45,887 bases of DNA, taken from assembly GCA_964391095.1 (NCBI GenBank), contig CAYMJA010000005.1:1-45887 (forward strand). The letters run 5' to 3'. Below the pieces are notes generated by a model, which had not been told where the DNA came from, did not search any database, and was given only the letters and a program-made list of their open reading frames with translations. The translations under genes were made by a program, and so were the position numbers. Below are positions 591 through 45,887 of the stretch, piece after piece; position 1 is the stretch's first letter, and every line of letters starts with the position of its first letter. This DNA comes from an uncultured Candidatus Saccharibacteria bacterium. GTDB lineage: Bacteria; Patescibacteriota; Minisyncoccia; Minisyncoccales; GWA2-38-27.

Positions 591-881
591 TTTTTTATAC
601 CAAACAGGCTCTAACATCGTCCAAGCCCTGCAACTAAGGGGCTCAATTCTTTTAATTCCTCTCTAATTTTTCTCCAATCAATGATTCTAAACGTGTCCAA
701 TAGGGGGGGCTATCTTTTGTCAAAGCTACAAAATTAGTACATTAACAATAGTAGTTTTGGTCCTCTGTACTTATTTCATAAAATAAAAAAAGCCCCTTTG
801 AATTAACTCATTGAGGCTTATTTATTTTGGAGAAAATCCATTGGGGCTTTTACAACTTTGGTCACAAGTTCTTTCGCGTGA

Positions 882-917
882 TTAAGCTGTATCAAAGGCG
901 GTGCGCAAAACAATCAT
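882..917 (-). CDS. Mini-peptide MIVLRTAFDTA (11 aa)
   Basis: SD-like AAGGGGG 7 nt before ATG; frame and stop conserved in the second repeat copy. Confidence 0.6.
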   Translation of the reverse strand: MIVLRTAFDTA

Positions 918-955
918 AATTATACCCCCTTTCTGATTGTAGGATGGTCCTTTAC

Positions 956-997
956 CTAAGCCGCAGCCGCTGTAAGGGCAGTACGGAGAGCAACCAT
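956..997 (-). CDS. Mini-peptide MVALRTALTAAAA (13 aa)
   Basis: AAGGAGG SD before ATG; TTGACA promoter upstream on - strand (1091-1096). Confidence 0.6.
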   Translation of the reverse strand: MVALRTALTAAAA

Positions 998-1223
998 AAG
1001 ACACCCCTCCTTTCTTTGAAATTCTGTATATTCTATCTATATGAAAATTATTAAGGTTCTATAATTAGATTATCAAATATCTATTAGTCTTGTCAAGTGT
1101 ATGTGGTTAAAATAATATACTAATCAAAAGAGTTGTCTTAAAATATACACAAAGTTGACAAAATAAGATTTTTATGTAAAGATAAATTAGTTCTTTCATT
1201 GTTTAAAAAGGAGGTGAAGTTCT

Positions 1224-1730
1224 TTGACAACTTATCAACCCGATGGACCGTATGTGATACAATCCGGCAAACATGCTGGACAAGTTCTTGAATTGTTAAT
1301 GTTTCGTGATTATCCTTTTCTGAGCTTCATGCTCAAAAGACTCAAAGGACACTTCTGGAAGAAGAAGAATAAATTTCATTTGCATCTGGAGTGGTTGATG
1401 CAGGGAGGGGAAAATCGTCAGCCAAAAATGATTTGCCCTCAATGTAAAAAACAAACTGTCGAATATTTCTCAATTATTTATGGACATAGTGGCGGTTTCT
1501 CGATAAGTCCTCTTTATACCTGTTGCGGACAAGAAAAATGTAAAGAGCAATTGCGTGCTATGGCGTTAGGCAAACCGCAACGATTAATGCCCTTCCGTTC
1601 TTCAACGATAAAACGTTTTTCTACAATCGCTGGCAGGAAAGAGGTAGTTGGTTTGTATAAGCGTGTTTTCGGACTACCAGAACGTCTGACTCGTCAAGTT
1701 GCTTTTGAGTTTTTTAACCAAAAGACCTGA
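1224..1730 (+). CDS. Hypothetical Cys-rich, probable Zn-binding protein
   Basis: TTG start after AAGGAGGTG; GKHAGQ motif, CPQC and CCGxxxC; hairpin plus T-run terminator at about 1748-1778. Confidence 0.75.
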   Translation: MTTYQPDGPYVIQSGKHAGQVLELLMFRDYPFLSFMLKRLKGHFWKKKNKFHLHLEWLMQGGENRQPKMICPQCKKQTVEYFSIIYGHSGGFSISPLYTCCGQEKCKEQLRAMALGKPQRLMPFRSSTIKRFSTIAGRKEVVGLYKRVFGLPERLTRQVAFEFFNQKT

Positions 1731-1927
1731 AGGGAAGTTTAGAATTTAACCCCGTTCACTAAAAGTTCGGGGTTTTTTATAAATATAGGTAGTTTTGCTT
1801 CTGTACTTATTTCATAAAATAAAAAAAAGCCCCTTTGAATTAAGTCATCGAGGCTTATTTATTTTGGACAAAATCCATCGGGGCTTTTACTCAACAGCTT
1901 GGTCAGCTAAAGGGACCGTAGTGTGAC

Positions 1928-1963
1928 TTAAGCTGTATCAGGGGCGATGCGCAAAACAATCAT
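1928..1963 (-). CDS. Mini-peptide MIVLRIAPDTA (11 aa)
   Basis: Same SD and spacing as 882-917; two amino-acid differences. Confidence 0.6.
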   Translation of the reverse strand: MIVLRIAPDTA

Positions 1964-2016
1964 AATTATACCCCCTTTCTTTGAGTGATTTTTCTTTGAG
2001 TGATAGCCGCTCGAGT

Positions 2017-2049
2017 TTAAGCTCTATCCCAGGCAGTGTAAGCAACCAT
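2017..2049 (-). CDS. Mini-peptide MVAYTAWDRA (10 aa)
   Basis: GGGAGG SD before ATG; positional equivalent of 956-997. Confidence 0.55.
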   Translation of the reverse strand: MVAYTAWDRA

Positions 2050-2403
2050 AAAACTTCCCTCCCTTCTTTGGGATTTTGTATATTATAGAAATTATTAAGG
2101 TTCTATAATTAGATTATCAGATATCTATTATTCTTGTCAAGTGTATATGGTTAAAACAATATACTAATCAAAAGAGTTGTCTTGAAATATACACAAAGTT
2201 GACAAAATTTTATTTCTTGCATAGAATGTAAAATTAAATAGTTCTTTGAGAATTCAATAGGTAAAGAAATCTATAGATAGAACTTAGAAAGGAGGAAATA
2301 AAAACCGGTTTGTAGAATAGCACAACTGGTCATTCCAGCTCGTGAAGCGAAATCTGTTTTGATAGCAGTTAGAAGATTAAAATAACCGTAGGAGGTAGTT
2401 GAA

Positions 2404-2697
2404 ATGTCAAGCGCAAGATGTCCGAAGTGTGGTGCTATTGGACATTGTTACTGCCGCAACATTGAAGAAATAAGCGGTTGTGACCTCTACACGTTCTTTT
2501 GTCCAAAATGTGGTTATATCGAAAAAAGGAAACAATATGGTGCTTCTCCAGTTTTTGATGACTGTCCTACACGGTGTCCATTCTGTAACGAGTTATTTTC
2601 TCAGCATTCAGAAACCCCAGAAGAGTTATGGTTTGTGACATCTTTGTCTCCGATTGATCCTCGTGAACTCAATCCTTCTGATTTTGAGAGTTTGTAA
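2404..2697 (+). CDS. Small zinc-ribbon protein
   Basis: AGGAGG SD; CPKC, CYC, CPKC, CPFC motifs. Confidence 0.75.
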   Translation: MSSARCPKCGAIGHCYCRNIEEISGCDLYTFFCPKCGYIEKRKQYGASPVFDDCPTRCPFCNELFSQHSETPEELWFVTSLSPIDPRELNPSDFESL

Positions 2698-45044: not shown

Positions 45045-45116
45045 GCCGAGGTAGCTCAATGGTAGAGCAACGGATTTGTAATTCGTAGGTTGGGGGTTCA
45101 AATCCTCTCCTCGGCT
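45045..45116 (+). tRNA. tRNA-Thr(UGU), no encoded CCA
   Basis: Acceptor GCCGAGG/CCTCGGC, D arm AGCTCAATGGTAGAGC, anticodon loop TTTGTAA, GGTTCAAATCC. Confidence 0.95.
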
Positions 45117-45386: not shown

Positions 45387-45887
45387 ATTTTTGAGAGTTT
45401 GATCTTGGCTCAGGATAAACGCTAGCGGCGTGGATAAGGCATGCAAGTCGAACGCCCACCCAAACTTCTCTTCGGAGAAGAATGTTGGCGGGAGTGGCGA
45501 ACGGGTTAGTAACGCGTGGATAATAAACCCTGAAGACGGGTATAACTTGGAGAAATCCAGGCTAATTCCCGATAGTTCGAGCAATCAGTTCGCTGAATGC
45601 TCGGTAAACGGAAGCTTCGGCAACCGCTTTAGGATTAGTCCGCGACCTATCAGCTAGTTGGTAAGATAACAGCTTACCAAGGCTATGACGGGTAGGGGAT
45701 GCTAGAACATGTTCCCCAACAATGGAATTGAGAACGGTCCATACTCCTACGGGAGGCAGCAGTCGAGAATATTCGACAATGGGCGAAAGCCTGATCGAGC
45801 GACGCCGCGTGCTTGAAGAAACCCTTCGGGGCGTAAAGAGCTTTTCTGGAGGAAGAACCTTCGGGTGACGGTACTCCAGGAATAAGG
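45387..45887 (+). rRNA. rrs: 16S rRNA, 5' part (runs off window)
   Basis: AGAGTTTGATCTTGGCTCAG, GCATGCAAGTCG, ACTCCTACGGGAGGCAGCAG. Confidence 0.98.

Follow-up and report, generated by a model that had tools for sequence, protein, structure and literature searches.

The window analysed here is the whole of a 45,887-nucleotide (nt) contig (C5; CAYMJA010000005.1, assembly GCA_964391095.1) from an uncultured Candidatus Saccharibacteria bacterium, whose genome comprises 567,614 bases on 18 contigs (96% complete, 35% G+C). A genome size of 0.57 Mb fits an ultra-small and probably host-dependent bacterium. Near the start of the window, two copies of a short module lie on the minus strand, copy B at 751-1200 and copy A at 1789-2250 (approximate ends). 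Each is composed of a promoter, two mini open reading frames (mini-ORFs) with a Shine-Dalgarno (SD) sequence and an ATG apiece, a small hairpin and a long terminator hairpin (Table 1). When copy B was searched against its own genome by blastn, copy A was found at 81% identity (query 17-417, 401 nt, E 1.2e-104); the MAFFT alignment of the two copies gave a mean column identity of 86%, and repeat families D1-D4 likewise show the A/B repeat. A duplicated minus-strand module with a promoter, two SD-preceded peptides and a terminator had been proposed from the letters of the DNA, and blastn, the repeats, the promoter scan and folding confirmed it, with all four peptides reading exactly as first claimed.

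Table 1 Positions of the parts of module copies A and B and of the genes divergent from them (aa, amino acids)
Feature	Positions	Strand	Remarks
Copy A, share of the common upstream block	2141..2215		repeat D1; + strand TTGACAAA at 2199
Copy A, promoter (TTGACA, 16 nt, GATAAT)	2113..2140	-	11/12 consensus
SD of A1	2058..2067	-	AGAAGGGAGG
Mini-ORF A1	2017..2049	-	10 aa, MVAYTAWDRA + TAA
SD of A2	1971..1980	-	AGAAAGGGGG
Mini-ORF A2	1928..1963	-	11 aa, MIVLRIAPDTA + TAA
Copy A, small hairpin	1895..1909	-	GACCA in loop; directly before terminator
Copy A, extended terminator hairpin + U run	1821..1888	-	from folding
Copy A, conserved trailing stretch past U run	1789..1820	-	repeat D17
Copy B, share of the common upstream block	1097..1171		repeat D1; + strand TTGACAAA at 1155, facing the 168-aa gene
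Copy B, promoter (TTGACA, 16 nt, GATAAT)	1069..1096	-	11/12 consensus
SD of B1	1006..1015	-	AGAAAGGAGG
Mini-ORF B1	956..997	-	13 aa, MVALRTALTAAAA + TAG
SD of B2	925..934	-	AGAAAGGGGG
Mini-ORF B2	882..917	-	11 aa, MIVLRTAFDTA + TAA
Copy B, small hairpin	854..870	-	GACCA in loop
Copy B, extended terminator hairpin + U run	785..851	-	from folding
Copy B, conserved trailing stretch past U run	751..784	-	repeat D17
168-aa protein gene	1224..1730	+	divergent from copy B; no named family; conserved CPxC + CCx4C
97-aa protein gene	2404..2697	+	divergent from copy A; Cys-rich, zinc-ribbon-like

The promoter is the same in both copies and matches the consensus at 11 of 12 positions; 66 sites of this quality occur genome-wide, compared with 30-46 in five mononucleotide shuffles. 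It is followed by an AU-rich leader of about 70 nt before the first mini-ORF. The terminators at the other end were missed by a simple terminator scan and were revealed by folding, while the stem of the small hairpin in front of them, as read from the sequence, differs between A and B by paired changes. Upstream of the promoter, the two copies have 75 nt in common, including a plus-strand TTGACA box that faces the 168-aa and 97-aa genes, which indicates that the A/B duplication copied a two-way promoter region. At copy A, the plus-strand TTGACAAA at 2199 lies in the promoter of the 97-aa gene (TTGACA-17-TAGAAT). In the spacer between the two mini-ORFs of copy A (1981-2012, minus strand), a tandem duplication of about 15 nt, with ATCACTCAAAGAAA present twice, stands just before the second SD; it is absent from copy B.

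A third, more distant copy (copy C) was found on another contig (C11:16775-17090), and nhmmer on the whole genome returned the three copies, the terminator of an RNA gene at 512-593 of the window (E 6.6e-5) and no further copy. Copy C contains a single 18-aa ORF (MIVLYIDGTGPKPKRRSV) and retains the -35 box, the leader, the SD, the first four codons (ATG ATT GTT CTG) and the terminator. Small indels relative to A2/B2 shift the shared TAA out of frame in copy C, and its ORF therefore runs to 18 codons. The comparison of B with C gave the same picture of a conserved leader, SD, first codons and terminator around a diverged ORF body.

The ORF lists showed no same-strand gene downstream of any of the three copies, so the modules are stand-alone units rather than operon leaders. 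What follows each of them is a convergent neighbour, namely the 168-aa gene for copy A, a plus-strand RNA gene (356-592) for copy B and a Nudix-like fragment for copy C. This layout bears on the idea that the module is an orphaned or unconventional leader-peptide attenuator, in which formation of the terminator would depend on whether the mini-ORF is translated, thereby gating antisense read-through into the convergent neighbour. In size and layout the mini-ORFs, with 10-18 codons and an intrinsic terminator 30-95 nt further on, do fit classical leader peptides, and the C-rich 5' arm of the hairpin and a C-rich segment in its middle can, as read from the sequence, both pair with the same G-rich 3' arm. 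However, both of these pairings would make a terminator, the folds predicted for the copies are different and showed no antiterminator alternative shared among them, and the ORFs contain no runs of regulatory codons. With no same-strand gene to control and three convergent neighbours unrelated to one another, we regard attenuation as highly improbable.

The conservation between copies A and B is a mosaic. The promoter block (116/123 identical, 94%), the second SD with its ORF (50/53, 94%) and the terminator (65/70, 93%) are nearly the same in both, whereas the body of ORF1 with the inter-ORF spacer (22/60, 37%) and the spacer after ORF2 (12/37, 32%) are no more alike than unrelated sequences. 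The earlier claim that the signals are kept while the spacers diverge was thus borne out. Despite its divergence, ORF1 keeps its SD, its ATG and the next two codons, an open frame and a GCT-stop ending. The terminator hairpins are conserved in the stem and in part of the loop, with one compensatory pair.

The signals for translation also resemble those of real genes. In all five mini-ORFs, a GG[AG]GG core stands 7-8 nt before the ATG, and long SDs precede real genes in this genome as well, with 14-nt matches to the anti-SD complement before ORFs of 273 and 438 aa. Furthermore, a composite pattern of SD, start, ORF and stop (SD-ATGRTTGYT-N18-33-GCTTAR) matched four times in the own genome; among 400 other genomes in the order it had a single match, which is out of frame, as read from the printed letters, and the reversed-pattern control gave none. 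The pattern thus goes beyond chance and is essentially unique to this organism among 401 genomes of the order. A 40-aa ORF with a GTG start (882..1004) was also considered and rejected, as the same frame in copy A, read by hand, has a stop and no start.

Taken together, these data suggest three paralogous, self-contained small transcription units, each predicted to run from a sigma-70-type promoter through an AU-rich leader, one (copy C) or two (copies A and B) mini-cistrons and a small hairpin to an extended intrinsic terminator. Given the own promoter, the terminator and the gene-like SD-ATG geometry, translation of the mini-ORFs is a reasonable expectation. Our tentative interpretation, which we consider quite possible though less than probable, is that the modules are translated mini-cistrons carried on a small RNA limited to this lineage, in which a variable ORF body sits within a conserved expression scaffold. 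Ribosomes would load on the module RNAs and translate the 10-18-codon mini-cistrons into very short peptides beginning with M-[IV]-[VA]; the scaffold common to the units would consist of the promoter, leader, SD, first three or four codons and terminator, and the ORF body would be the fast-changing part.

What is observed is the layout of the modules, their number, their patchwork of conservation and the absence of relatives in the collections searched; their transcription, their translation and any role of the peptides are inferences. Several observations weigh against this interpretation. By chance alone, an ATG is not unlikely to be followed by an open frame of 10-18 codons. The anti-SD complement used above is the generally known consensus; the 3' end of the genome's own 16S ribosomal RNA (rRNA) gene is unassembled (a search of the assembly with two short motifs did not find it). 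Measured against that consensus, only B1 (10 nt) and C (9 nt) give a perfect match of at least 9 nt, the SDs of A1, A2 and B2 differing from it at one position. The -10 hexamer of copy C, as read from the sequence, is poor. At the level of the peptides, A2 and B2 differ by three nucleotides, all of them non-synonymous (I/T and P/F) and none synonymous; when the pairwise similarities of the translations are added up, the ORF frame reaches 121, compared with 92 for frame +1 and 129 for frame +2; and copy C is shifted out of frame at the shared stop and extends to 18 aa. The comparative evidence, drawn from three paralogues in one genome, is thin and non-independent, and none of it is decisive.

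Some weak points favour coding. The length difference of 9 nt between A1 and B1 is a multiple of three, and the Leu codon TTG of B2 is replaced by the synonymous CTG in copy C. The public runs that contain the stretch are labelled salt marsh metagenome, with no RNA run listed among 16, and their contigs, which are fragmentary, yielded a single population variant inside a mini-ORF; this variant, at 974 in B1, is synonymous and comes from one contig with a depth of 2.9. Overall, we found no evidence of selection on the peptide sequence. As for the original prediction of translated mini-genes, the self-contained units with the SD-ATG geometry of real genes stood, and conservation as a family of functional short peptides found no support: the A2/B2 changes are all non-synonymous, the frame comparison does not discriminate and copy C is frame-shifted.

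If the peptides have a role, the natural guess would be that of a variable diffusible or inhibitory peptide. In the most far-reaching reading, the 10-18-aa peptides themselves would be the products, their bodies, set in a conserved expression scaffold, would be under diversifying selection, and they would serve this ultra-small, probably host-dependent bacterium as diffusible signals or as inhibitors of a target in a host or a competitor. We consider this very unlikely; if it were true, the modules would be among the shortest independently transcribed bacterial genes.

The same observations can be read in terms of the RNA. In this alternative, the module RNA would be the functional product, regulatory or structural, and the SD-ATG mini-cistrons would act only in cis, either because ribosomes sitting near the 5' end protect the RNA against 5'-to-3' decay or because translation itself determines how the RNA folds, with the peptide sequence being irrelevant. 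The constraint on the second SD and ORF2 would then be one on nucleotides, with synonymous sites unchanged and only three changes, all non-synonymous; the variable ORF body, the undiscriminating frame comparison and the tolerance of copy C for a frame shift at the stop would all be expected; and the conserved terminator hairpin (stem, part of the loop and a compensatory pair), together with the small hairpin present before it in all three copies, would be parts of the product. The genome also contains an RNase J-like gene fragment on another contig (C18:5238-5771, minus strand), which is cut by the contig end, covers model positions 370-545 only and scores 152.7 bits, below the cut-off for that reason. 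In addition, an SD-like 10-mer without an ORF (AGAAAGGAGG, 2286-2295, plus strand) lies in the 5' untranslated region (about 170 nt) of the 97-aa gene, without a usable start codon, and may be a 5' stabiliser-type element.

However, apart from the terminator, the folding of the module RNAs is unexceptional (z-scores -1.8, -0.8 and -2.4), and no structure is shared over the ORF region; the predicted probability of the SD being unpaired ranges from 0.07 to 0.64, with no fold common to the copies. Elsewhere in the genome, no complementarity of at least 13 nt that is conserved across copies was found, the best complementarity (16 nt) lying in the non-conserved part of copy A. Hfq and CsrA were not found in this 96%-complete genome, and no Rfam family matched the modules, the best score being SAM-III with 17.5 bits against a cut-off of 45 (E 2.1). 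An RNA product would moreover leave unexplained why an ATG stands at the ideal distance from the SD in all five units. Weighing these points, we consider a purely RNA-based function, although it is the foremost alternative, rather unlikely.

Relatives of the module were searched for beyond the own genome. In 60 related genomes, blastn gave only matches of 19-47 nt with E-values of 5e-5 or weaker, in 12 of them, at loci that were left uninspected. The SD-ATG pattern, run over 39 genomes of the family, had three foreign matches, each starting a long ORF or lying inside one. The terminator pattern matched 12 stretches in genome contigs and one in viral contigs, none of which was module-like; among 30 stretches that it matched in metagenome contigs, only two (L054 and L071) fit, and these are identical to the window and to the contig of copy C over the printed stretch and so represent the same organism. 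With a covariance model of the terminator (R1), the highest foreign score among 151 genomes of the order was 36 bits, compared with 113-133 bits for the three own copies, and the 19 foreign loci that were inspected are plain terminators. Two more pattern scans of viral sequences were also negative, yielding 3 and 102 stretches; of the 102 matches, 33 are at the start of ORFs no longer than 30 aa, and none has the flanks of the module. Nothing matched in the phage and plasmid collections. The search of related genomes for an SD, an ATG and a short ORF, which had been suggested along with the prediction, thus brought to light no homologous module outside the own organism, and the modules are, as far as searched, limited to a single organism with a genome of 0.57 Mb.

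The genes next to the modules were then considered. As predicted, copies A and B are divergent from two different Cys-rich genes, encoding proteins that are unrelated to each other and that match no named family above the cut-off in Pfam and NCBIfam scans. The 168-aa protein is a real conserved gene product: in relatives at 46% identity, its CPxC and CCx4C motifs are invariant, and a language-model search gave a weak lead only, to ExoX-like_C and QSregVF_b clusters. A search of 38 other genomes in its family did not find the gene; across the order, 25 of 400 genomes besides this one have it, among them 16 of the 22 in one family (f21), and this distribution suggests a recent horizontal acquisition. 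Upstream of nine 168-aa homologues in other genomes, no module was found. Some homologues (L216, L219 and L220, genus g44) are preceded, on the strand of the gene, by a conserved, structured-looking element of about 170 nt with a terminator at its end, which looks like a leader or riboswitch-like RNA and has no Rfam match. For the 97-aa protein, three distant relatives were found in the family, again with no module upstream of their genes. Directly upstream of one of these (L074, genome G010) stands a T-box-like leader (1218-1400, plus strand), whose 65.6 bits (E 8.5e-13) fall short of the gathering score of 93; such a gene is unusual behind a T-box. Nothing significant was seen in the way of a defence or phage context for the two neighbours. 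The ORF that copy C faces, of 77 aa and with only one Cys, is doubtful. The suggestion that the peptides are partnered with adjacent zinc proteins therefore fell away, as the neighbours are unrelated, copy C lacks a Cys-rich neighbour and the nine 168-aa relatives have no module upstream.

On the other side of copy B, a conserved RNA gene occupies 320-595 of the window (plus strand), with a perfect TTGACA-18-TATAAT promoter (320-349), a G+C-rich RNA of about 235 nt and a terminator at 551-592. A homologue with 75% identity to it occurs in a different genus of the family (G011), and the alignment of these two sequences shows seven compensatory pairs. The RNA contains two similar CCUARC...ACAG..UAGG domains, and no Rfam family matched it. 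The module terminator resembles the terminator of this RNA gene (inverted repeat I1, in addition to the nhmmer match at 512-593) and, as read from the sequence, looks like two tandem copies of its simpler hairpin, most clearly in copy C, which makes a local origin plausible. At its far end, the window carries a tRNA-Thr(UGU) gene (45045-45116, plus strand) and a 16S rRNA gene (45387-45887, plus strand), of which the first 491 positions are present before the contig ends.

The likeness of the terminators and the foreign 168-aa gene together suggest that the A/B region was recently remodelled and that the modules are young. In a further reading, the modules may have no function of their own and may be a lineage-specific by-product of local duplication, a two-way promoter/terminator cassette in a remodelled, horizontally acquired region whose mini-ORFs are incidental or proto-genes. 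Consistent with this, nothing similar was found outside the own organism, the 168-aa gene appears to be a recent arrival, the best-conserved block between A and B is the divergent promoter region, which would also drive the plus-strand genes, and the module terminator is like a doubled version of that of the neighbouring RNA. Yet three copies cost about 1.2 kb of a streamlined 0.57-Mb genome; blocks of 93-94% identity beside unalignable ones point to constraint or repeated conversion, not to simple decay; and the distant copy C, on another contig, still retains the -35 box, leader, SD, ATG and terminator. We consider a mere by-product unlikely.

Other known arrangements were considered and set aside. 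In type I toxin-antitoxin systems, an overlapping antisense RNA accompanies a hydrophobic membrane peptide of about 20-60 aa; the module peptides have 10-18 aa and are not membrane-spanning, and no opposite-strand promoter into the ORFs was detected at the scan threshold. A precursor of a ribosomally synthesised and post-translationally modified peptide, or one of the microcin C type, is disfavoured by neighbours that match no modifying enzyme or exporter and by peptides that end in Ala or Val. A decoy sequestering CsrA or Hfq does not fit a genome in which neither protein was found, and each module RNA has only 2-3 GGA/SD-like motifs.

Overall, the anatomy of the modules is real, unusual and clean, and we regard the family, limited as it is to a single organism, as a candidate rather than a discovery. 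If the mini-cistrons are translated, each would be a stand-alone gene of just 10-13 codons, a length that falls far short of every annotation threshold, and three copies would be a noticeable investment for a genome of 0.57 Mb. They would then be a good system in which to ask if ultra-short peptides, or small RNAs loaded with ribosomes, are important in the poorly understood biology of very small uncultured bacteria.

A full-text search of the literature returned general papers on small proteins and work on the peTrpL/rnTrpL system; it did not find mini-ORF units in Patescibacteria, although such a limited search cannot exclude that they are in print. In Sinorhizobium meliloti, peTrpL is reported to be a 14-aa leader peptide that acts in trans, and rnTrpL the attenuator small RNA (sRNA) that goes with it (PMC7298713, PMC7968998, 10.1101/864512). 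The modules resemble this system in that a short, terminated RNA would carry a tiny ORF preceded by an SD of its own, with both the RNA and the peptide as possible products. They differ from it in that trpL precedes trpE(G) and, with its Trp codons, works as a true attenuator, whereas no gene follows the modules, regulatory codons are missing, up to two cistrons lie on one RNA and three paralogous copies are present.

The modules can also be compared with dual-function sRNAs such as SR1/SR1P, RNAIII/delta-haemolysin and SgrS/SgrT, which have ORFs of 26-43 codons and known base-pairing targets. A small ORF inside a unit with its own promoter and terminator is common to both; in the modules, however, the ORFs span 10-18 codons, the complementarity scan turned up no target conserved across the copies, and the search for Hfq was negative. 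Another point of comparison is mccA, the microcin C precursor gene, which with seven codons is among the shortest known genes, encodes a peptide ending in Asn and is part of an operon that also encodes the adenylating enzyme MccB and an exporter. Like mccA, the mini-ORFs are predicted to be ultra-short genes for ribosomally made peptides with a strong SD, but their peptides end in Ala or Val and their neighbours match no MccB or exporter family. The STAB-SD of Bacillus thuringiensis cryIIIA is an SD-like stabiliser at the 5' end of an mRNA, with no start codon behind it, that protects a long downstream mRNA. The modules may be similar in carrying a long SD-like sequence near the predicted transcript 5' end, in an organism with a truncated RNase J-like gene, but here the SD has an ATG at the ideal spacing and no downstream cistron. 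Finally, sibling sRNAs such as OmrA/B and LhrC1-5 are non-coding and target SD regions with C-rich or other seed motifs. The modules share with these siblings the presence of paralogous copies, of which two lie in tandem, and a promoter and terminator that are conserved around a variable middle part; in contrast to them, the module RNAs would themselves carry the SD and the ATG.

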